From a virus (taxonomy: Duplodnaviria; Caudoviricetes), in IMG/VR virus record IMGVR_UViG_3300034073_002726, positions 1-58,460 of that record: a DNA stretch of 58,460 bases. One strand, given 5' to 3'. Position numbers and translations under genes: made by a program. Every line of letters begins with the position of its first letter. Within the stretch, counting starts at the first letter, position 1. Under the pieces are notes generated by a model that saw nothing but the letters and a program-made list of their open reading frames with translations, searched no databases and was not told the DNA's origin. This document shows positions 27,713 to 37,215 of this stretch, one piece after another.

Positions 27713-28167
27713 CAGGCGATGCCTACAGTCACGGGACGGCAGATCAGCGTTGCGCGGATCGTCTGCCCGGCTGCGGGGTTCGCGCCCAGGAACTTGATAC
27801 CCCAGCCGCGCTCCGAAGCGTCGGATGCGATGGCATTCACGTTCTTGGAACGGCGAATCACGCCAGCCGTCGCGGCGGCAGAGGCGGCGAAGAACTCGCT
27901 GCCCATGGTGCGTGCGTTGTCGGCCTTGCCGTAGGTGCCGCTGATGACGCCAGCGTCCAGCGTGGCCGAAGCGCCCAGGGCGCCGTTGTCCACGATCAGA
28001 TCCACAGGCACGCAGTTCTGGGGGATTGCGCCGAACTCCACGATGTCATTGATGGCATCGCCGGTCACGGTCACATACTCGCCGGTCACCACGATGGGTT
28101 CGCTTGCCTCGTAGGCGGTAGGGGCTGGCAGACCCGCCAGCACCTGCTTGGATTGTTTGAGGGCCAT
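27712..28167 (-). CDS. Capsid decoration/cement-like protein
   Basis: 151-aa beta-rich ORF immediately after the capsid gene; AAGGA SD. Confidence 0.65.
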   Translation of the reverse strand: MALKQSKQVLAGLPAPTAYEASEPIVVTGEYVTVTGDAINDIVEFGAIPQNCVPVDLIVDNGALGASATLDAGVISGTYGKADNARTMGSEFFAASAAATAGVIRRSKNVNAIASDASERGWGIKFLGANPAAGQTIRATLICRPVTVGIA

Positions 28168-28195
28168 GTTGGTATTCCTTCAGGTGAGGGTTGCG

Positions 28196-29305
28196 TTAGA
28201 CGGCGGCGGTGTAGGCCGTGTCCACAGTGATCTGGCCGTAGTCCATACCGTCGAACTGGGACTTGTCAGCACCAAAAATCATCTCGAAGAACAAGATGTG
28301 ATCGTGCTTGCGGTCGTCCATGTCCTCGTCCAGGCTCACCGACATCCCATCGGCCATGCCCTTGGTGCCGTGGGCGATGGACACAGCATTGGAGCCCATG
28401 AACAGCGAACGGGCTGCAGCGACATTGCCGCCAGAGCCGTAGTCGTTGAACTTCACGCCCACTTCCATTTCGTCAATCAGCACGCCGTTGAACATGCCGG
28501 CGCCACCCTTGAAGATTTCCGACTCCTTGCCAACCGCAGTGGTCAGAGCCTTCTGGGCTTCAAACCAGCCTTGTGCGCCCACGTCGTCGCGGATGTCCTG
28601 CATCACTTCTGGCAGCACAGCCAAAATGAAGCAATCCTTGCCGCCCTTGCGGATGGGGGTCATCTTCACAGGCTTGTCCTTGCCGCCCAGCATCTTCTTG
28701 GCCTTGGTGCGCAGCTTGTTCACCGTGGCAAGAATCATCTTGTCAGTGCCTGCCAGGGTGGCCTTGGCCTTGGAGCCATCTGTGCCCACAAACAGGTGAG
28801 CGGTATCAGGCGCGCGCAGGGCGTTGGGGTAGCCTGCGTAGTCCGTGCCGAAGTGGCTGATTTCGTCGCCTACACCACGGGCGCCGGATGCAGCGGTCAC
28901 GATGACCTGCTCATACAGCTCCTTGATGTACTCGGTCAGCTTCTCGCGGCCCTGCTTCTTCAGGTTGTAGCCCACGCGCGACTGCTCGATGCGGGCGCCA
29001 ACGTTCACGCCATGGCGGAACTCGTTGATGCGCATCGTGTGTGCGGCGTGCTGCAGCTTGAATTCCTGGCCCGCCAGCTTCTGGCCTTCGGTGATGGGTG
29101 CGCCACGAAACTTGGCCACCAGTGCGGTGGTCACTTCGTCGCCAGCGCCCTTTTCCAGCTCGGTCTTCTTGATGACGGCAGAGCGGGAACCTTCTTCACC
29201 CACCAGGCGGGCGAAATACTGCTCCTGGGCAGCGTCGTTAGCTACTGCCGCTGCCCAGGCTTTACGCTTGTTTGGGTCGTTCGGCAAAATTGTCGTGCGG
29301 CTCAT
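28196..29305 (-). CDS. Major capsid protein (N4-gp56/DUF4043-like)
   Basis: ELEKGAGDEV, IFKGGAGMFNGVLI, DYGQITVDTA motifs; AAGGAG SD. Confidence 0.9.
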   Translation of the reverse strand: MSRTTILPNDPNKRKAWAAAVANDAAQEQYFARLVGEEGSRSAVIKKTELEKGAGDEVTTALVAKFRGAPITEGQKLAGQEFKLQHAAHTMRINEFRHGVNVGARIEQSRVGYNLKKQGREKLTEYIKELYEQVIVTAASGARGVGDEISHFGTDYAGYPNALRAPDTAHLFVGTDGSKAKATLAGTDKMILATVNKLRTKAKKMLGGKDKPVKMTPIRKGGKDCFILAVLPEVMQDIRDDVGAQGWFEAQKALTTAVGKESEIFKGGAGMFNGVLIDEMEVGVKFNDYGSGGNVAAARSLFMGSNAVSIAHGTKGMADGMSVSLDEDMDDRKHDHILFFEMIFGADKSQFDGMDYGQITVDTAYTAAV

Positions 29306-29375
29306 GTGTTACTCCTTGTCCAGCACATTGACGCACTCCTGCGCGCCGAAAAACCCCCAGCGGAATGCCAGGGCC

Positions 29376-29582
29376 TTACAAAGCTGGCTCAGTTCGCCGC
29401 CTGCTCTCGGGCTTGCCCACCCTCACGGAAGGGCTTGCCTGAATACGCACGCGGGCCTTGCGCCCATCTTTGGATTCGAGTATTAGCACAATTTTTTCGG
29501 AGTCAACGCCATTGATTCCGCGCAGGCAAACCGACTCGCCCTCGCGTATTTCAACGACCAGCCCCGGCTTGTGTTGCGCCAT
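29376..29582 (-). CDS. CsrA/RsmA-fold-like small protein
   Basis: GLVVEIREGESVCL...KIVLILESKDGRKARVRIQASPSVRVGK aligns by eye to CsrA beta-strands. Confidence 0.55.
   Translation of the reverse strand: MAQHKPGLVVEIREGESVCLRGINGVDSEKIVLILESKDGRKARVRIQASPSVRVGKPESRRRTEPAL
29479..29508 (-). promoter_or_regulatory. Phage late promoter motif copy (capsid operon), intragenic
   Basis: CGTTGACTCCG; TTGACT-N16-AATACT. Confidence 0.75.
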
Positions 29583-29583
29583 A

Positions 29584-30447
29584 TCAGTCGGCATCCAGCA
29601 GCGCTGCCTTCTGCGCTGGCGTCAGCTTGTCAAAGGCGGCCTCGTAGGCTGGCCCCTTGAGGCGTGCAATCTGCTCGATCACTCCGCCCGTGTTCGGCGT
29701 GGACGCACTGGGCAGGCTGCGCAGCGTCACGGGCACATCGCCTGCAGGCTTGCGCTCTGGGGCGGGTGCCTTGGGTGGAGTCTGCACACCACGCATAGCC
29801 TTGACCATCTTGTGCGCATCCTCAATCAGGTCGGCAAAGTCCTTGCCAGCATTGGCAGGCTGTGCGGCCAGCACCTGCAGGCTGGTGTCGAACTGCTGCT
29901 GCGCCGTGGCATCCGCGGCATAGTCCACCTCGCTCTTGGTGTTTGCAATCAACCGCTGAATGGCGCGGGCTTGATAGGCCTGCTGCGACTGGGCATTGGC
30001 TTCCTGCAGCGTCTCGGCGCGAATGCGGGCAGCGGCCAGGTCTTCCAGGGCCTCGGCCACTCGCGCGTCTTCGGCCGCAAAAGTTTCTGCGTCGATTTCA
30101 CCGTCCATCAGCTGCTTCATGGCGTCGGCCTTGGCCTTCATCAGCTCTGCACGCTGGGCCTTGTAGTCCTGGGGCACCTCGGCTTTGTATGTAGGCAGCT
30201 CGGCTGCTTCGGTGCTGGCTGCTGCGGGGGCAGGATCAGCTTCAGCCTGCTCTTCCTCGGCAGCCGGCGCATCGGCTGCGGCCTGATCTGCTTCGGGTTC
30301 TGCTGCAGCCTCGGGGGCTGGCTCGGGGGCTGGCTCGTCTGCGTCAGCCTCCACGGTCAGCGGTTCATCATCGCCAAAAGGGTCTTGCCCAGCGGCCTGC
30401 GCGGCGGCAATAGCTTCCAGTGCTTTGAGGTCTTCGGGTGTGCTCAT
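29584..30447 (-). CDS. Capsid scaffolding protein
   Basis: Acidic A/E/P-rich helical protein between portal and capsid genes; AGGAG SD. Confidence 0.8.
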   Translation of the reverse strand: MSTPEDLKALEAIAAAQAAGQDPFGDDEPLTVEADADEPAPEPAPEAAAEPEADQAAADAPAAEEEQAEADPAPAAASTEAAELPTYKAEVPQDYKAQRAELMKAKADAMKQLMDGEIDAETFAAEDARVAEALEDLAAARIRAETLQEANAQSQQAYQARAIQRLIANTKSEVDYAADATAQQQFDTSLQVLAAQPANAGKDFADLIEDAHKMVKAMRGVQTPPKAPAPERKPAGDVPVTLRSLPSASTPNTGGVIEQIARLKGPAYEAAFDKLTPAQKAALLDAD

Positions 30448-30477
30448 GATTCTCACTCCTGCGAGGTTGGTGGTTGG

Positions 30478-30864
30478 TTATTTGTTGGCCAGCTGGCTGC
30501 GCAGCTCGTAGCCCATCAGGGGCCAGATGCGGCTCACAGCGTTCTGGCGGGCAATCTTGCGGCCCACATCGGCGTCGAAGTTCTCAGGGCTGGCGCAGGC
30601 GCTCTCGCCGGTCACGGTGAAGCCGTTGCGCAGGACCAGCACGCAGAAGGTGAGAAGGCCCAAAGGCGCAAGATCGGCATTGCCCTCCACGGGACGCTCC
30701 CTGCCCACGTACGTCTCGTTTGTCAGCGCACCCAGCCTGCCGTCTCGGGCCGTGAAATAGTGCTCGCTGGCGATGTTCGCCTCAATGTCCGCAGGCGTCA
30801 CGCGCGGCGCTGTCAGGCCCTTGGCCTGGATCTCTTGCTCGATGGATTCGTCGGTAGTGCTCAT
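30478..30864 (-). CDS. Gp49/Gp66 family protein
   Basis: TFCVLVLRNGFTVTGESACASPENFDADVGRKIARQNA. Confidence 0.9.
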   Translation of the reverse strand: MSTTDESIEQEIQAKGLTAPRVTPADIEANIASEHYFTARDGRLGALTNETYVGRERPVEGNADLAPLGLLTFCVLVLRNGFTVTGESACASPENFDADVGRKIARQNAVSRIWPLMGYELRSQLANK

Positions 30865-30908
30865 GTAAACCTCGGTGTTCATGGGTGGGGTTGGTGAAAT
30901 TACGCAGG

Positions 30909-31133
30909 TCATTGGCAGGCTTCACAAGTGCCGTCGCCCGACAGGTCACAGGCCTGGCCCAGCGGGAAGTCGTCGGCCTGAGCCACCAGGTCCAGTTCGC
31001 CCAGTCGATGCAGCTGGGTCTGGCCATCCCATGCGCACAGGGCCTGCTGGCCAGCCAAGCTGGTGACGGTCATGTCTGGGCCTCCGCTCTTGTGGCGCAC
31101 GGTGTCGCCTGCGGAAATTGGGGTCGCTGTCAT
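30909..31133 (-). CDS. YodC/DUF2158-like protein with Cys-rich tail
   Basis: GDTVRHKSGGPDMTV...CAW; C-terminal ACDLSGDGTCEACQ. Confidence 0.7.
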   Translation of the reverse strand: MTATPISAGDTVRHKSGGPDMTVTSLAGQQALCAWDGQTQLHRLGELDLVAQADDFPLGQACDLSGDGTCEACQ

Positions 31134-33322
31134 TGCTGTGGTGGTAGTGGTTGTTCAATCAGGCTTTGCTCTACGCCGTCCGCCATCGGTGTCTGGCTGC
31201 CCACCATGCCGCCGTCCATCTGCTGCATGTCAGGGATGGGCTCTTGCATGGGGTCTGGTTGCGCTGCGGGCGGCTGCATCGCAGGCATGGCGGCCGGATC
31301 AATCACACCCTGGCCATTCATGTCCTTGAACCCCACCGACTTGAGCAGTTCGTCGGCCACGGGGGTAATGCCGGGTGCCGTCATCAGCACCTGAGCAGCC
31401 TGAGCCGACAGGTACAGCCCCTCCAGGCGCTTGGCCATGGCATCGGCCTCCAGCTTCTCACCCTTGGCCTGGGCTTCGCGGATCTGCGCTTGGAGCTGCG
31501 CCATCTGGGCTTCAAACTGGGCCTGCGCCATCTGCTGCTTCTGCTGCATCTCGGCTTGCTGCTCGGGCGTCATCTTCCCGGATTCATCGGCCTGGCCATT
31601 CACCGAACGGATGCGCTTCAAGATCGCCTGCTTGCGCGGCAGGTTCGGGTGCATCTCGAAAATCACGTCCAACAGGTTCACCACGATCTGCGGCGCTGCG
31701 CTGGCCAACTGGGTCATCACCTGCATCAGCTGCTCAAAAGCCGCTTCGGCAAAACTCTGCTTCCATGCCTGCTCGCCCACCGTGAAATGCGCCTGGCGCT
31801 GGGTGATGTCGTTCAAGTAGGTGCCGTCTGGCTGCGGCTGATTGATCCGCGTGTACTCATTGCGCCCGTTGTCGCCGCTGGTGCGCACCGTCATGGGCTG
31901 GGTAATGAACTGCTCGGCCAGGCTCAGCGCCATCTCGCCCTCCATCTGTCGGGCAAACAGCAGGTTGTCGAAAAGCTCCATGGTGATGAGGCTGCCCTGC
32001 TCCTGCTTGGCCAGCACGGCCTTGCCGCTGGTGGCATTGGTGTCCAGGCCCCGGTTTTCCCCGGTCACGCCAGACATTTGGCGGATGGCATTCAGGTCGT
32101 ATTGCGCCAGGTTCAGTTGGAACTGCGCCGACTGGTTGTTGTCCCGGTCACGCACCTTGCCACCGGCCAGGGCACCGCGGGCAAACACCGCCGTGCCGTG
32201 CGGGTCATCCAACTCACGCCGGATCTCGTCAATATCCATCACCTCGGGGTTGAATGAATCTTCCTCCATCAGCAGCTGATTGGCGCTGGCCTCATACAGG
32301 CTACGGCTCATGCGATGGTTCAGCGCTTCCTGTGGCCCCATCAGCTGGCAGATTGGGCTATACGGCAGGCCTGTGCGCTTGTTGCGGTAGGCCCAGTACG
32401 GGATGAACGGGAACCGGTCGTGCTTGAATGGGCTCCAGGACTCAATCAGCGTGTCCTTCTCCGTCATGATGGAGCACATGATCCGCCACGTCATCGGGTC
32501 GGCAATGCCAAACGGTCCGGGCTCCTTGTTGTGGAAAGGCTCACGGCTCCAGCACTCCAGCAGCAGCACACGCTCGCGGGTGTTGAACATGTCCACGGGC
32601 TTGGCGGTCAGGTAGTCCAGCTTGTCGTCCTGGCTGCTGAAAGCGTCCAGCCCGGCAATCAGCCCGGTGCCCAGCCAGTTGCGCAGAATCTCGGCATCGT
32701 CGCCGTTCTGCGCGCAGGCCTCCAGCTTGTCCTTTTTGTCCGGGAACAGCGCGATAGCTACATCCAGGTCCACCACCTTGATGCGGAACAGGTAACGGGC
32801 GTCTGACAGATCCCGCTTGGTGGCCATCGAGTCCCACAGGATGTTGCGCCACGATTCCGCCCCGATGTAGATGGGCGCACCGTTCTTGTCACCGCGCAAA
32901 CCCACTTCGATCCAGCCAATGCCAGCCTTGAAAGCGTCCTCGGCCGCGTAGCTGCGCTCAAAGCTGGCCCGGTTCGTCTCGTCCAGGTACTTGAGCAGCT
33001 TGGTTTTGAGTGATGCGTCGTTGTCAGCTTCCTCGCCTTCGTCGTCCGCCACCACCAAAAAGTCCACCCGCGTCTTGCGCTCGGTGCCGATCAGCCAGTC
33101 GATGGTGGGCTTCACCTCGTTGTACACAACCACAGGCTGGCCACGGTCACGCAGCTCCTGGGCGTCCTCAAACTCGTACTGGTTGCCGTCATAGAACGCT
33201 TCCGACTTGGCCATCATGGCCCGGTTGGCCGACTGGCGCGAAGCCTCAGCCAAGAACCAGGCTCGGCGCTTATCGTGTCGCTCCTGCACTGCGGCAGGGC
33301 TGGTGTCGAGATTGGATTTCAT
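31130..33322 (-). CDS. Portal protein (P22-like)
   Basis: FYDGNQY...RGQPVVVYNEVKPTIDWLIG; NATSGKAVLAKQEQG; Q-rich barrel. Confidence 0.9.
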   Translation of the reverse strand: MKSNLDTSPAAVQERHDKRRAWFLAEASRQSANRAMMAKSEAFYDGNQYEFEDAQELRDRGQPVVVYNEVKPTIDWLIGTERKTRVDFLVVADDEGEEADNDASLKTKLLKYLDETNRASFERSYAAEDAFKAGIGWIEVGLRGDKNGAPIYIGAESWRNILWDSMATKRDLSDARYLFRIKVVDLDVAIALFPDKKDKLEACAQNGDDAEILRNWLGTGLIAGLDAFSSQDDKLDYLTAKPVDMFNTRERVLLLECWSREPFHNKEPGPFGIADPMTWRIMCSIMTEKDTLIESWSPFKHDRFPFIPYWAYRNKRTGLPYSPICQLMGPQEALNHRMSRSLYEASANQLLMEEDSFNPEVMDIDEIRRELDDPHGTAVFARGALAGGKVRDRDNNQSAQFQLNLAQYDLNAIRQMSGVTGENRGLDTNATSGKAVLAKQEQGSLITMELFDNLLFARQMEGEMALSLAEQFITQPMTVRTSGDNGRNEYTRINQPQPDGTYLNDITQRQAHFTVGEQAWKQSFAEAAFEQLMQVMTQLASAAPQIVVNLLDVIFEMHPNLPRKQAILKRIRSVNGQADESGKMTPEQQAEMQQKQQMAQAQFEAQMAQLQAQIREAQAKGEKLEADAMAKRLEGLYLSAQAAQVLMTAPGITPVADELLKSVGFKDMNGQGVIDPAAMPAMQPPAAQPDPMQEPIPDMQQMDGGMVGSQTPMADGVEQSLIEQPLPPQQ

Positions 33323-33819
33323 ACTTCGGCCTCATGCAACACCTTGCCGGTGTCCTTGTTGGTGGCTGTCACCTCCCACATCGGGGGCGTGTCCAGGGCT
33401 TGTTTGATGTGCTTGGGCGTGGCTGGCATCAGCACCAGCTCGGGCGCGAACGTCACCACCACGTCCACCAGTTCATGCAGCGCGGCCTTGTCGTTCACGT
33501 CCTTGCCCAGCAGCGGCATAGCCTCGCGCGCCTCGCGGAAACAGTGCGCCGATGGCCCGCCCGTGCACTTGTCGTCCTGGTTGAAGCCCACGAACTCAGT
33601 GATGCAGTTGCGGGTGATCGTCCAGATACCTTGGCCTTCGCCGGTCACAAAAACATTGCTGGCAGGCCAGATGCACATCGCGGCACGGGTGTGCTTGCCC
33701 AGGCGAATCCACTCCAGGCTCACGACATAGCCATGCTTCACGGCGGTCTTGTAGGCCTGGTTGCCACCCACGGAAAACATAGGCTCTCCGCTCGGGCTCA
33801 GGACAGGGGAAATGTTCAC
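33319..33819 (-). CDS. Hypothetical protein
   Basis: 166-aa ORF between terL and portal; GGAG SD, GTG start, coupled to portal. Confidence 0.75.
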   Translation of the reverse strand: MNISPVLSPSGEPMFSVGGNQAYKTAVKHGYVVSLEWIRLGKHTRAAMCIWPASNVFVTGEGQGIWTITRNCITEFVGFNQDDKCTGGPSAHCFREAREAMPLLGKDVNDKAALHELVDVVVTFAPELVLMPATPKHIKQALDTPPMWEVTATNKDTGKVLHEAEV

Positions 33820-33822
33820 GGC

Positions 33823-35100
33823 TTATCTCCAGCTGCGTTTTCGGTTTTTGAATGCGGTCACGGAGTCGCTCACCGTGCTGGTCATCAGATCCACGGCTTG
33901 GCCCAGGTAGCGGAAAGCGTCGGCACCATGGCTGTACTCGTCGTGCAGCGGGGCGCCCGGCTCGTTCGTCTTTTGGTTGATGTCGCGCCGGTAGCGTTTC
34001 AGGCACTCCACCAGGCGCAGCGTCTTCTCTTGGTCGAAGTAGCATTTGGGGAACAACAGGCGCGCAGCCTTAATGCCTTCCTCAATGCTGGTCTGCGGCA
34101 GCACATGCACCGTGCGGCCCATGTCTTTGAGCAGCTCCTCGGTGCTTTTGCCGGTCTGAAAGTTGCGCGTGCGCCCGTCGTGGGGCAGAAAGTCCGTGCC
34201 CCAGCGGTACGGGTGCCTCTCCAGCTGGCCCACATACCAATCCAGCGTGCGGTTGCTGTCCTCGATGTAGCCGATCACCCGCACCTCGCGCGGCCCGCGC
34301 TGCGCCAGGATGATCGTCATGGCGTCGTTCCAGCCCAAGTCCCAGATGCTGTGCACAGGCAGCTCTGGGTCGTATGGAACCAGCGTCACGCGCTTGTCCG
34401 TGTAAAGCTGGTCAATCTCATGGCGGTAAATGGCGCCCTCGGCCACGCGGCGGGGCTTACCTTCCCAGATGTGGTCATAGCTCACTGGGTCCAGCGCCTG
34501 CGCCTTCACCCGCTCCTGCTCCAGCACCGCAGGGAACCACGGGTTGTCGCGCCAGTTAATCTCGCACGTCCAGGTGTCCGGGCTCGGCGCTGCAATGAAG
34601 CGCTGCCACGTCTCGTCCGTGTCCATGTCTGGGTTCAGCGTCAGCCAAATTTCCGACTCAGGTTTGCGGATGGTCGGAATCAGGGTGTCCCAGCTCTTTT
34701 TGCTCACGCCATGGGCTTCTTCCACCCACACAATGTCACAGCCTTCAAAGGACTTGATGGAGTCCACCGTGTGCGCCTGCAGGCCAGTGAACAAGAACAG
34801 TGAACCGTTGGCACCGCGGATTTCGTTGTCCAGGATCTCAAACTCGTCGGTCAAGTTCAGCGCCACCACCTGGTCTTTGAGCAGCCGGTGCACCGAATCG
34901 CGCATGGACTTCTGGACCTCACGGGCGCACAAGATGCGCAGCGGTCGGTCTGCAGCCATCAGCAGCAGCGCACGGGCCACGGCCCATGACTTGCCGCCAC
35001 CACGGCCGCCGTGCATCACCTTGTAGCGCTTGGGCTGGAAAAGAGGGCGCAACTTCGCCGGGAACTCGGCGCGGATGTCGATGAACGCCTCGGCAGTCAC
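33823..35100 (-). CDS. terL: Terminase large subunit (PBSX type)
   Basis: GGRGGGKS Walker A, WVEEAH Walker B, WDLGWND, SHGADAFRY. Confidence 0.95.
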   Translation of the reverse strand: MTAEAFIDIRAEFPAKLRPLFQPKRYKVMHGGRGGGKSWAVARALLLMAADRPLRILCAREVQKSMRDSVHRLLKDQVVALNLTDEFEILDNEIRGANGSLFLFTGLQAHTVDSIKSFEGCDIVWVEEAHGVSKKSWDTLIPTIRKPESEIWLTLNPDMDTDETWQRFIAAPSPDTWTCEINWRDNPWFPAVLEQERVKAQALDPVSYDHIWEGKPRRVAEGAIYRHEIDQLYTDKRVTLVPYDPELPVHSIWDLGWNDAMTIILAQRGPREVRVIGYIEDSNRTLDWYVGQLERHPYRWGTDFLPHDGRTRNFQTGKSTEELLKDMGRTVHVLPQTSIEEGIKAARLLFPKCYFDQEKTLRLVECLKRYRRDINQKTNEPGAPLHDEYSHGADAFRYLGQAVDLMTSTVSDSVTAFKNRKRSWR

Positions 35101-35741
35101 TTTGCAACCACGTCCACGAAGTCGAGAATCACACGCTTGCGCTGCGCGCCCGACTGACTCTTGTCGTCATCGCCCTCAATGCCATAGGCTTCACGTTCTA
35201 GGCCGATAAGCACTCGCATGGAGTCGCCCAGGTCTTTCATCGTCTTGACGCGGCTAGGAAGGCTGATGACTTTTTGGTAAATCTCAGCCAACTTGTCTTG
35301 CCCCTTATCGTCAGGGCTGCGCATCAACTCACCCAAGTCAGCCAACATGGCGGCAGCATCAGGCCCAGTCTGCAACTCCAATTCCGTAAGCAGATTGGCG
35401 GCAACACTTCTAGCGCGCGCAATGTCCTTGCGATGGCTAATGCGAACCGAAGCGATTTGCGTGGCGTTGTCTTCAATAACCTGACGCTCTGGAACTGCGG
35501 GCTGGGGCGTAACCTTCCCCGTAACCATGGCCTGCGTAACCATGGCATCCGCCTTGGCGCGGATCTTTGCGGCTAGATCCCGGTCAATCCCAGCCTTCTT
35601 GAAGTGATTGACGATGGCTGCATGCGAAACCGGGTCGCCTGTTTCCTCGGTGTACTGGGCGGCAAGTTGGCGTGGGCTGAGTATTCCGGCGCGCCAACCA
35701 GGCTCAATGCGGGCGTAGTCAACCTTTTTAGTGGCTGCCAT
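35097..35741 (-). CDS. terS: Terminase small subunit
   Basis: N-terminal HTH (YARIEPGWRAGILSPRQLA), LIGLEREAYGI; directly upstream of terL; GAGGTGG SD. Confidence 0.75.
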   Translation of the reverse strand: MAATKKVDYARIEPGWRAGILSPRQLAAQYTEETGDPVSHAAIVNHFKKAGIDRDLAAKIRAKADAMVTQAMVTGKVTPQPAVPERQVIEDNATQIASVRISHRKDIARARSVAANLLTELELQTGPDAAAMLADLGELMRSPDDKGQDKLAEIYQKVISLPSRVKTMKDLGDSMRVLIGLEREAYGIEGDDDKSQSGAQRKRVILDFVDVVAK

Positions 35742-36396
35742 ATTCCACCTCTTCCAGCCTGGCGACAATCTCCAAGCGCGCCACTGCACCATTCTCCAAA
35801 CCTGTGGCCCACGCTAGATCCTCATCGGGGATGGACTCCAGGATGGCTGGGCAGCTCGCAATAATGGAAAGCAGATAACGCCTGCACTCCTTGTCCACTT
35901 GTTTTAAATAGGCCTCAACCCGCGCCAAGTCATCTAGGGCCTTTTGCAGCGGGTCGATTGGCTCAAACATCCGCTCGAAGACTTGCACAGATGGGATGGC
36001 CAGATTGCACAGGACATCGTGGTGCCCGCGAATCAGGTACGCCTCGTACCCTTTGGCAAAGACGTCATCAGAGCATTGCAAGAAAAGCGTGTAGCGCAGT
36101 CGGGGGCCGATGTGGCGGATGTATTGCGACTTTTCCGACAGATCACCTTGCATGGCGATCTTTGCGTGGTCGGTGGCTCTGCGCCCAATACCCTTACCGA
36201 CATAAAAGACAGTTCCGTTATCCAGGCAAAGCCCGTATACGTAGTGCTCCCATTGGCTTGCATCGACTGCGGAAACAAATTCCTGCTCGGTCAGCAAATA
36301 CTTCGCAGCCAAGAACTCGCCTTGATCCCAAGTGCGCTTTGGTGGTGTGTCGAGATGCTGTACCGGTGCCGCACTCCAGCGCGACTGTGATGCCAT
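35728..36396 (-). CDS. GIY-YIG (LEM-3-like) nuclease
   Basis: HYVYGL...FYVGKGIGRRATDH. Confidence 0.75.
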   Translation of the reverse strand: MASQSRWSAAPVQHLDTPPKRTWDQGEFLAAKYLLTEQEFVSAVDASQWEHYVYGLCLDNGTVFYVGKGIGRRATDHAKIAMQGDLSEKSQYIRHIGPRLRYTLFLQCSDDVFAKGYEAYLIRGHHDVLCNLAIPSVQVFERMFEPIDPLQKALDDLARVEAYLKQVDKECRRYLLSIIASCPAILESIPDEDLAWATGLENGAVARLEIVARLEEVEYGSH

Positions 36397-36426
36397 GAGA
36401 AACCCCGTTGAATTGACTATCTGCCA

Positions 36427-36456
36427 ATTGCAACGGGGTTTTCTTCGGAGTCAACG
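36427..36456 (-). promoter_or_regulatory. Phage late promoter motif copy (packaging operon)
   Basis: CGTTGACTCCG; TTGACT-N16-TGCAAT. Confidence 0.7.
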
Positions 36457-36477
36457 CTTATGACTTCGCAAGCATGC

Positions 36478-36702
36478 CTACCTCCAAGGCGCGACTGGTA
36501 ACACTTTGCGCCAGTAAATCCGCTCATTCTTGGCCGCCTTCATTTGAGCGATTTCTGCGGCCTGCTCTGCGGTGTAGTGGGGCCAAGCTGGCTGGGACCA
36601 TTGCACGCCATCCCACCACCTCCATGCGTTGTGGATATTGGGGCGATATGCTGCGTTGTACCAGCCTGGGCAAGGCGGTGGGTTTCCATTCCAAAGGCTC
36701 AT
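36478..36702 (-). CDS. Trp-rich small protein (DUF2510-like motif)
   Basis: GGAGG SD; PGWY...RWWDGVQWS. Confidence 0.65.
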   Translation of the reverse strand: MSLWNGNPPPCPGWYNAAYRPNIHNAWRWWDGVQWSQPAWPHYTAEQAAEIAQMKAAKNERIYWRKVLPVAPWR

Positions 36703-36703
36703 T

Positions 36704-36925
36704 TCACACCTCCACCCAGTATTTCGGCTGTTGCAAGCTCCCACAGCTCTTGACCTTGCCCAGCTGGCACAGCCGCTCGATGTGCCTGCGCGCTTTTGTC
36801 TTGCTGCTGCGGCACGCGGCCACGGTGTCGGGGTGGCGCTCGATGTCCCGGGCGGGTGCCGGGCCAATGGCGATGATGACCTGGCGGATGGTTTCGATGG
36901 CTCCCTGCAGGCGTGGTGTAGTCAA
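36704..36925 (-). CDS. Small winged-helix-like protein
   Basis: TTG start with AAGGAG SD overlapping the upstream stop; ARDI...ARRHIERLCQLGKV...YW. Confidence 0.55.
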   Translation of the reverse strand: MTTPRLQGAIETIRQVIIAIGPAPARDIERHPDTVAACRSSKTKARRHIERLCQLGKVKSCGSLQQPKYWVEV

Positions 36926-37215
36926 GACAGTCGCTCCTTGAGGTTGACGAGGTACTCGGGGTTGCAGCGCCCCTGGCGCGTCATCTCCAGTCTTTTCACC
37001 TGGGTGCAGTCGGCGCACATCGGGAAGTCAAAATTGAAAGTGGCAGATCCGTCCTGGGCGATGCGGATCACAGTGGGCTCATTGCGCTGGTTCTGTGCTG
37101 CTGCTGCACTTTGCAGGTACTGCATCCAGCCGCTGCGGTTGAAAAAGCACGGCGGTGGCGGTGGCGCCAGGTCATCCACGGCGTCTTTGAGGTTGATGCG
37201 GCACTTTGTGGTCAC
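36922..37215 (-). CDS. Cys-rich hypothetical protein
   Basis: PPCF...CADC...RC. Confidence 0.7.
   Translation of the reverse strand: MTTKCRINLKDAVDDLAPPPPPCFFNRSGWMQYLQSAAAAQNQRNEPTVIRIAQDGSATFNFDFPMCADCTQVKRLEMTRQGRCNPEYLVNLKERLS

Follow-up and report, generated by a model that had tools for sequence, protein, structure and literature searches.

In the viral record IMGVR_UViG_3300034073_002726, analysed over its whole length of 58,460 bases (hereafter the window; near-complete, 98%), a small gene of the head module, which runs on the minus strand, encodes a divergent, helix-less CsrA-fold member of the Bcep22-type 'CsrA-like regulator' in a conserved slot between the scaffold and capsid genes. 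Hairpins at the scaffold-like gene, in the capsid leader and in the first packaging-module gene are, judging from their aligned sequences, of one design: a stem top of C-G, G·U and C-G pairs, a W-R-G-A loop, and outer pairs that vary and remain complementary. We give about an even chance to the reading that the CsrA-like protein binds these hairpins, a binding that we infer, and that it governs how late morphogenesis mRNAs are translated or how stable they are. The features on which the argument rests are the following (E, expectation value; SD, Shine–Dalgarno sequence; ORF, open reading frame; aa, amino acids; R1, the covariance model described below).

28196-29305, minus strand: major capsid gene, Bcep22 type (PF13252, E 1.1e-43; phrog_334, E 2.5e-72)
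29312-29323, minus strand: two more GGA motifs in the capsid leader, CUGGAC and the AAGGAG SD (29317-29312), by direct sequence reading
29330-29347, minus strand: hairpin 2, GGCGCGC-AGGA-GUGCGUC, in the capsid leader, with a 7-bp stem (R1, 33.9 bits)
29376-29582, minus strand: CsrA-like gene, 68 aa (72 aa from an alternative ATG at 29594), from the ORF list, profiles and predicted fold
29584-30447, minus strand: scaffold-like gene, 287 aa, acidic, alanine-rich (phrog_8246, E 3.8e-29; located between portal/gp49_66 and capsid)
30452-30465, minus strand: hairpin 1, CUCGC-AGGA-GUGAG, whose loop is the SD of the scaffold-like gene (R1, 27.9 bits)
35728-36396, minus strand: first packaging-module gene, 222 aa, carrying hairpin 3 (phrog_5356, E 2.6e-6)
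36368-36385, minus strand: hairpin 3, GUCGCGC-UGGA-GUGCGGC, in codons 5-9 of ORF 35728-36396 (R1, 30.0 bits)

A CsrA-fold protein between the scaffold-like and capsid genes

The initial annotation had related the 68-aa ORF to CsrA by eye, and this relation is supported by both the family profile and the predicted fold. A word-indexed search returned 105 homologues of 52-87 aa, each at least 66% identical, and a profile search of 1.84 billion representatives gave 86 relatives; the wide-family alignment and profile (A2) hold 79 sequences. Of these 79 members 47 match PF02599 (best E 4.1e-7). When A2 was compared with the PDB, it matched RsmE 2jpp (3.7e-7), CsrA 1y00 (9.3e-5) and 2bti (9.8e-5), and 5z38 (1.3e-4); eight CsrA, RsmA, RsmE, RsmF, RsmN or truncated-CsrA sequences besides 2jpp were found at E <= 0.0045. 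Alignment of A2 by hhalign with Bcep22 gp54 ('CsrA-like regulator') gave 98.2% and E 5.6e-14. Among 32 close homologues of the window protein, 31 match phrog_8397 'CsrA-like regulator' (best 6.6e-6; the window protein itself, E 0.01) and 12 match PF02599 below threshold (best 0.0032).

An AlphaFold (AF2) model built on A2 reached a predicted local distance difference test score of 87.4, and upon Foldseek comparison with the PDB ranks 1-11 were all CsrA, RsmE or RsmA chains, with probability 0.85-0.99 and template modelling scores of 0.43-0.56 by query and 0.55-0.72 by target; a fold unlike that of CsrA had been named in the initial annotation as the outcome that would speak against it, and the top matches of the model are CsrA chains. 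According to the model, the beta-strand core of the CsrA monomer is present in the small protein. Three strands only were assigned in the monomer model, as would be expected of a chain that needs a partner for strands 1 and 5, and the homodimer prediction, which we count neither for nor against a dimer, scored 0.40 against a mark of 0.42. On account of the A2 profile, the hhalign result with gp54, and the AlphaFold model with its Foldseek ranks, we accept the small protein as a CsrA-fold homologue with high confidence.

CsrA contacts RNA through L2, L4, R6 and R7 of strand 1 and through V40, V42 and R44 of strand 5. The residue matches listed in the initial annotation hold in the profile hidden Markov model alignment to RsmE/CsrA, where L12 corresponds to L2, R17 to R7, G19 to G9, E20 to E10, G44 to G27, R48 to R31, A53 to A36, V57 to V40, V59 to V42 and K61 to R44. 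The equivalents of R7, G9, E10, G27 and R31 are invariant (32/32 close homologues), and that of R44 is K in 18, R in 13 and M in 1 of the 32, the window having K. The L4-equivalent is kept as V or L, L2, R7, V40 and V42 are also kept, and K42, R48 and R50 are family-specific, near-invariant basic residues.

Several properties of the protein weigh against our reading. The window protein has no match to PF02599 even at E <= 10 (gathering score 27 bits), no CsrA structure was returned from the PDB with the single window sequence or with a narrow profile (A1, from the 32 close homologues), and homology to CsrA, as drawn from sequence, rests on the wider, transitive profile. The Foldseek E-values are 0.4-1, none at or below 0.001, for these short chains. 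The C-terminal alpha-helix after strand 5 is absent from the model (beyond the R44-equivalent, 32 homologues have a median of 6 residues), the R6-equivalent is hydrophobic (I/M/L), and the R44-equivalent is basic in only 47 of the 79 members of the wide family. The window's clade also carries an insertion of roughly 6 residues between strands 2 and 3.

A tblastn search of 50,697 GenBank phage records with the window protein returned nothing at E <= 1. Two further matches were rejected: the 'ZZ4' repeat protein 9lx4, top PDB match of the single-sequence and narrow-profile searches, is a low-complexity resemblance through a short KDGRKAR-like stretch, and weak Pfam TraI_2B matches vanish in the wider family (1/79).

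Hairpins in the window

The coordinates and sequences of the ORF and of hairpins 1 and 2 had been given correctly in the initial annotation (hairpin 2 there as GCGCGC-AGGA-GTGCGT at 29346..29331). All three window sites lie on or near ribosome-binding regions: the AGGA loop of hairpin 1 is itself the SD, 9 nt before the scaffold ATG at 30447, hairpin 3 occupies the first codons beside the start of the packaging gene, and the CGC...GUG core of hairpin 2 ends 28 nt before the capsid ATG at 29305 (26-30 nt in the window's clade). Hairpins 1 and 2 are both found in minimum-free-energy folds. The exact sequence CGCWGGAGTG occurs three times in the window against 0.59 +/- 0.79 expected (3 of 100 shuffles reach three), and with one mismatch 26 times against 13.8 +/- 3.5 (none of 100 shuffles reaches 26). 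With these counts, and with unremarkable single-sequence folding z-scores (-0.79 and -1.28), the window by itself only suggests the hairpins. R1 was built from 33 sites including the window's three; its three strong matches in the window are followed by a next best of 16.3 bits, a gap that is not an independent test because R1 was trained on those sites. Rfam families gave no match in window positions 28000-37000 at E <= 1, and no sigma-70 promoter was found directly upstream of hairpin 2 in the window, in contrast to isolate phages.

Two side observations concern the stretch 3' of hairpin 2. A GUGC(Y) element lies 2-6 nt 3' of the capsid-leader hairpin (window 29321-29329, minus strand; judged by eye, in about two thirds of the loci); as its sequence is that with which the 3' arm of the hairpin begins, it may serve as a further recognition element or offer another partner for pairing. 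A leader-peptide upstream ORF (ATG or GTG) was rejected, as it is not conserved among relatives.

Conservation of the hairpins in related phages

A search with the protein led to 24 viral contigs, and in these, as in two bacterial genomes, both hairpins recur 5' of the scaffold gene and of the capsid gene. In 16 sequences of the scaffold hairpin 96.3% of cells are paired compared with 80.1% after shuffling (0/500 shuffles reach it), with two-sided changes at 2 of 5 pairs and slid controls 12-62% paired; in 21 sequences of the capsid hairpin the values are 93.6% and 84.7% (0/500 shuffles), with two-sided changes at 3 of 7 pairs and slid controls far lower. The outer pairs vary with compensation, as CU/AG, AG/CU, CA/UG or AU/AU at the scaffold site, and the fourth pair of the capsid site is G-C, U-A or A-U, while in these contigs and genomes the inner C-G, G·U and C-G pairs and the loop W-G-G-A are constant. 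By this compensatory covariation at both sites, the two hairpins of the initial annotation are real, evolutionarily maintained RNA structures. All 20 distinct capsid-site sequences retain the G·U pair, and only one opposite-strand match was seen across the 36 loci described below; the conserved G·U pair and this strand bias argue for a motif that acts as RNA rather than as DNA. Moreover, the 10-mer occurs 14 times in five related records, the reversed control not at all.

The third site is occupied at the same place in two related genomes (G005 and G007), and in two others outside the R1 training set (G003 and G004) it scores 21 and 25 bits with the loop AAGA, 4.6 and 5.7 kb upstream of the scaffold site. 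A circuit of scaffold and capsid genes had been proposed from the window; both of its sites are borne out, and its limitation to two genes is not, in view of this third site at a packaging gene.

The breadth of the capsid-leader hairpin was counted in 36 loci whose capsid protein is 40-97% identical to that of the window. The hairpin lies 36-84 nt before the capsid ATG in 32 of them and before a gene inserted ahead of the capsid gene in three, and one locus (L080) has neither hairpin nor CsrA-like gene. Distant CsrA-like genes reached via three representatives gave 12 loci, all with a hairpin in the next leader (loops AGGA, AAGA, AUGA and AGAA); 44 distant capsid loci (L100-L143) stand outside the hairpin count, for which the strict filter misses 4-bp and variant versions. 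The scaffold-SD hairpin is confined to the closer clade: it is present in the window, as claimed in the initial annotation, and in the window's clade, and it is not a general feature, being absent from Bcep22, Eline and LASTA. Likewise, AGGA loops are shared by the scaffold and capsid hairpins of the window, and GGA is not invariant among relatives; what does not vary there is the top of the stem, CGC/GUG, which includes the G·U pair. The loops of isolate phages are AGGAU (Bcep22), AGGA (Eline), AAGAC (LASTA), AUGAC (POI1126) and AUGA (Atu_ph08), and comparison of loop type with protein residues across isolates revealed no simple pattern by eye. A GGA-bearing SD is found in related capsid leaders as well.

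Further arrangements of the motif were noticed among relatives. The SD of the N4 gp49/Sf6 gp66-family gene lies in the same hairpin type in some of them, as a fourth site (L003:739-762; L066, 2255 nt upstream of the capsid start); the window's gene of this family (30478-30912) has no such SD hairpin. In L065, L066 and L072 the CsrA-like and capsid genes are separated by an inserted gene of about 175 aa, which owns the hairpin-bearing leader (about 580 nt upstream of the capsid start); the L072 inserted gene starts MARTT..., like the capsid protein, and the capsid gene there has a new, hairpin-free leader. In Atu_ph08-like phages a divergent promoter region bears the motif on each strand, one copy belonging to the capsid leader and the other to the leader of the oppositely transcribed gene (L027, which is Atu_ph08, and L102, L109, L117, L121, L122, L125, L130, L131 and L140).

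Co-occurrence of protein and hairpin

In genomes where the capsid gene and the scaffold/CsrA-like pair have come apart, it is the capsid gene that has kept the hairpin, and a CsrA-like ORF is still encoded elsewhere (Atu_ph08, POI1126, G008, G009, G010, G012 and G013). L079 and L080, whose capsid proteins are both about 54% identical to the window's, differ in that L079 has gene and hairpin and L080 neither, with an unrelated 82-aa ORF in the CsrA-like slot. In 933W and Vibrio phage D96a (capsid proteins 24-26% identical) neither hairpin nor gene was found, the gene having been looked for with the A2 profile only.

Two bacterial genomes that carry related prophages (a Rhizobacter sp. metagenome-assembled genome (MAG) and a beta-proteobacterial MAG) gave no match to PF02599, and for this reason a host Csr network seems an unlikely target, as far as these genome sequences indicate. 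The same result makes plausible the view, already contained in the initial annotation, that the phage circuit is self-contained.

Relation to known genes and comparable systems

The gene type is already known, and the conserved cis-elements and their three-site layout appear to be new. Bcep22 gp54, Eline gp35 and LASTA gp20 bear the annotation 'CsrA-like regulator'; their genes either adjoin the capsid gene on its upstream side or are parted from it by a single inserted gene. The window gene matches their position, between the scaffold-like and PF13252 capsid genes and downstream of a P22-type portal. Together with JC1 gp47 and CSP3 orf23 (phrog_8397) these proteins are homologous to that of the window; their genes occupy the same slot, ahead of a PF13252 capsid gene in a head module with a P22-type portal (PMC9144972, PMC10269572), and the same capsid-leader hairpin is present. 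They differ from the window clade, which has diverged further, in that they attain the Pfam threshold or come close to it (Bcep22 32.3 bits, Eline 31.7 bits); the window clade in turn has the scaffold-SD hairpin in addition and, in five genomes or more, also the site at the packaging gene.

In the JC1 paper (PMC9144972), gp47 is a CsrA moron beside capsid gp48 with one unique peptide in CsCl-purified virions, and CSP3 orf23 is likewise treated as a CsrA moron in PMC10269572. A 2020 survey gives 30 csrA-positive phages and Burkholderia hosts without chromosomal csrA (PMC7366521), and phage RsmA/CsrA homologues are reported in a 2021 paper (PMC8450108). No literature was found that names a function of these phage genes, or RNA targets in the phage's own head genes, the supplements of PMC7366521 and PMC8450108 not being covered; relatives of the window protein may be among the phage CsrA homologues listed in those supplements.

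Compared with CsrA/RsmA/RsmE (PF02599; RsmE 2JPP, E. coli CsrA 1Y00), the window protein has the beta-strand core and keeps G9, E10, G27, R31, A36, V40 and V42, with R44 as K/R, and its candidate targets are alike in being GGA in hairpin loops and SDs. It is unlike them in having no Pfam match, no C-terminal helix, an insertion between strands 2 and 3 and a hydrophobic R6-equivalent, and its candidate sites are unlike in that a 4-nt loop sits on an invariant CGC/GUG stem with a G·U pair, where the first G of GGA can be A or U in relatives. CsrB repeats read CAGGAUG, a loop context similar to C-AGGA-G, and the Bcep22 capsid-leader site also reads CAGGAUG. In the MS2 coat protein/replicase hairpin, T4 RegA and P22 scaffold autoregulation, a phage protein acts on the ribosome-binding region of phage mRNAs, the MS2 coat protein binding its hairpin as a dimer. 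Those systems employ unrelated folds, whereas here there is a separate small regulator gene and one motif reused at several late genes.

Proposed mechanism and alternative explanations

In our model, CsrA-like dimers would bind the three hairpins and thereby control ribosome access or mRNA stability of late morphogenesis genes without a host Csr system. At the capsid leader, the GGA of the hairpin loop and that of the SD are about 21 nt apart, a suitable distance for a CsrA dimer to span, and one dimer could bridge the two. As for the sign of the effect, repression is our default guess at the scaffold-SD and packaging-gene sites, because these lie on or beside the ribosome-binding region, and stabilisation or activation would be possible at the capsid site, because it lies upstream of that region. 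That such control would set the scaffold:capsid stoichiometry, as the initial annotation proposed, is a conjecture.

An extension of this model, which we consider unlikely, is that protein and hairpins form an assembly-sensing loop by analogy with Hag-FliW-CsrA of B. subtilis, where CsrA controls translation of a self-assembling structural subunit via two sites, one at the SD. Free regulator would repress the scaffold, capsid and first packaging-module genes by recognising a non-canonical determinant, the G·U-containing stem top with its W-R-G-A loop, and unassembled or assembling head proteins or procapsids would titrate the regulator, such that structural synthesis tracks head assembly; the single JC1 virion peptide would fit such titration. 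Unlike in B. subtilis, a FliW-like partner was not seen here, no search for one having been made, and the coupling to assembly is speculation.

The main alternative, which we hold to be less likely than our reading, is that the hairpins are functional RNA elements independent of the CsrA-like protein, and that the protein acts on host mRNAs, as in the moron view of the JC1 and CSP3 papers, or on other phage RNAs. The hairpins might then stabilise the message from near its 5' end, be sites of RNase processing, or expose or hide the SD. The following observations speak for this alternative or against binding by the CsrA-like protein. A sigma-70-like promoter (TTGcAa, 17 nt, TAnAAT) precedes the capsid hairpin by about 15-25 nt in Bcep22, Eline, LASTA, POI1126, Atu_ph08 and L059/L060, which places the hairpin near the mRNA 5' end, where stem-loops protect transcripts. 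Relatives carry non-GGA loops, namely AAGA (L009, L056, G003, G004, LASTA), AUGA (Atu_ph08, POI1126, L058) and AGAA (L063), which canonical CsrA is not expected to tolerate, and Bcep22 has no second GGA near its SD. G011 has the hairpin and no CsrA-like ORF detectable with either profile. Because gene and capsid hairpin are usually adjacent, their co-occurrence, and their joint loss in L080, could reflect linkage rather than function; the negatives in 933W and D96a are limited by the fact that the A2 profile also missed the CsrA-like gene of POI1126. The loop of the third site is also coding sequence, its variants specifying R, K or W (AGG/AAG is a conservative R/K change), and protein-level constraint may account for part of the conservation there. 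The JC1 and CSP3 papers take the gene as a moron (PMC9144972, PMC10269572). A plain stabiliser, however, would not require that the C-G, G·U, C-G top be invariant and the W-R-G-A loop persist where capsid proteins are only 32-35% identical, nor that three kinds of position, at the SD, in the leader and in early codons, share one motif. A role in the host network would moreover have no obvious substrate, as related hosts appear to be without CsrA and, presumably, without Csr small RNAs (for Burkholderia, PMC7366521), and even in very distant phages the CsrA-like gene is found at the same place within the head module.

We regard it as quite unlikely that the small protein is mainly a virion or assembly component with a CsrA-like beta fold, not an RNA regulator, and has no connection with the hairpins. 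In favour of this are the location of the gene within the head module, the absence of the helix that canonical CsrA employs, and the unique gp47 peptide from purified JC1 virions; this single peptide is weak evidence, as the JC1 authors themselves state (PMC9144972). The invariant basic residues K42, R48, R50 and K/R61 fit nucleic-acid binding, and the best structural matches are all RNA-binding CsrA chains. We judge it very unlikely that the motif works as DNA, serving a phage transcription factor as operator or promoter element; this view would draw on an imperfect inverted repeat close to promoters in isolate phages. The invariant or common G·U pairs of the stem would be mismatches in DNA, the motif lies nearly always on the coding strand (one opposite-strand match in 36 loci), compensatory changes preserve pairing and not half-site sequence, and one copy overlaps an SD while another is inside a coding region.

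Surrounding genes and side observations

The other features of the head module are as follows.

29355-29373, minus strand: terminator-like hairpin with U-run, between the CsrA-like stop codon and hairpin 2
30478-30912, minus strand: N4 gp49/Sf6 gp66-family gene (PF13876), between portal and scaffold
31130-33322, minus strand: P22-type portal gene
33823-35100, minus strand: large terminase gene
35097-35792, minus strand: small terminase gene (phrog_1206, E 1e-51)

The window capsid protein is 35% identical to the Bcep22 capsid protein, and the internal ATG of the small ORF, at 29582, is one base past the scaffold stop. The terminator-like stem-loop before the capsid leader is always present in related loci L001-L024, its structure kept and its sequence differing. 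At the DNA level the PF13876 gene (30478-30912) is about 71% identical to 'anti-CRISPR protein' genes of Pseudomonas phages vB_PaeS-D14C and P7869.

ORF 35728-36396 lies 3' of a terminator-like hairpin and upstream of the small terminase gene. Upstream of this first packaging-module gene a conserved, -35-like TTGACTCCGA(A/G)A was observed (window 36396-36460, minus strand; also L048, L040, L050 and L051), and in the window, G005 and G004 the -35-like element is followed by a strong terminator-like hairpin directly before the packaging-gene ATG. This layout is reminiscent of a late promoter plus a terminator that requires antitermination, for which lambda PR'-tR' is an analogue.

The window stretch or its relatives occur in subsurface, groundwater and wastewater sequencing runs. 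RNA-library contigs of relatives span the region, some joining the CsrA-like gene and the capsid leader, and are uninformative on transcription, transcript ends and strand.

Implications

Should the hairpin prove to have nothing to do with the protein, Bcep22-like phages would even so share a widespread RNA motif that has not been described and has no match in Rfam. If our reading is true, the system would show in nature how the specificity of a CsrA fold can move away from strict recognition of GGA, and would provide a minimal CsrA scaffold that lacks the helix. The assembly-sensing loop, if true, would be a phage-autonomous post-transcriptional regulon in hosts without a Csr system, common to many Bcep22-like phages. 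Phage CsrA homologues have been catalogued, yet in the literature found they are treated as morons of unexplained role; a cis-element at the starts of head and packaging genes, in phages of hosts apparently without CsrA, turns the label 'CsrA-like regulator' into a testable hypothesis, that of a phage-internal translational regulon for morphogenesis.

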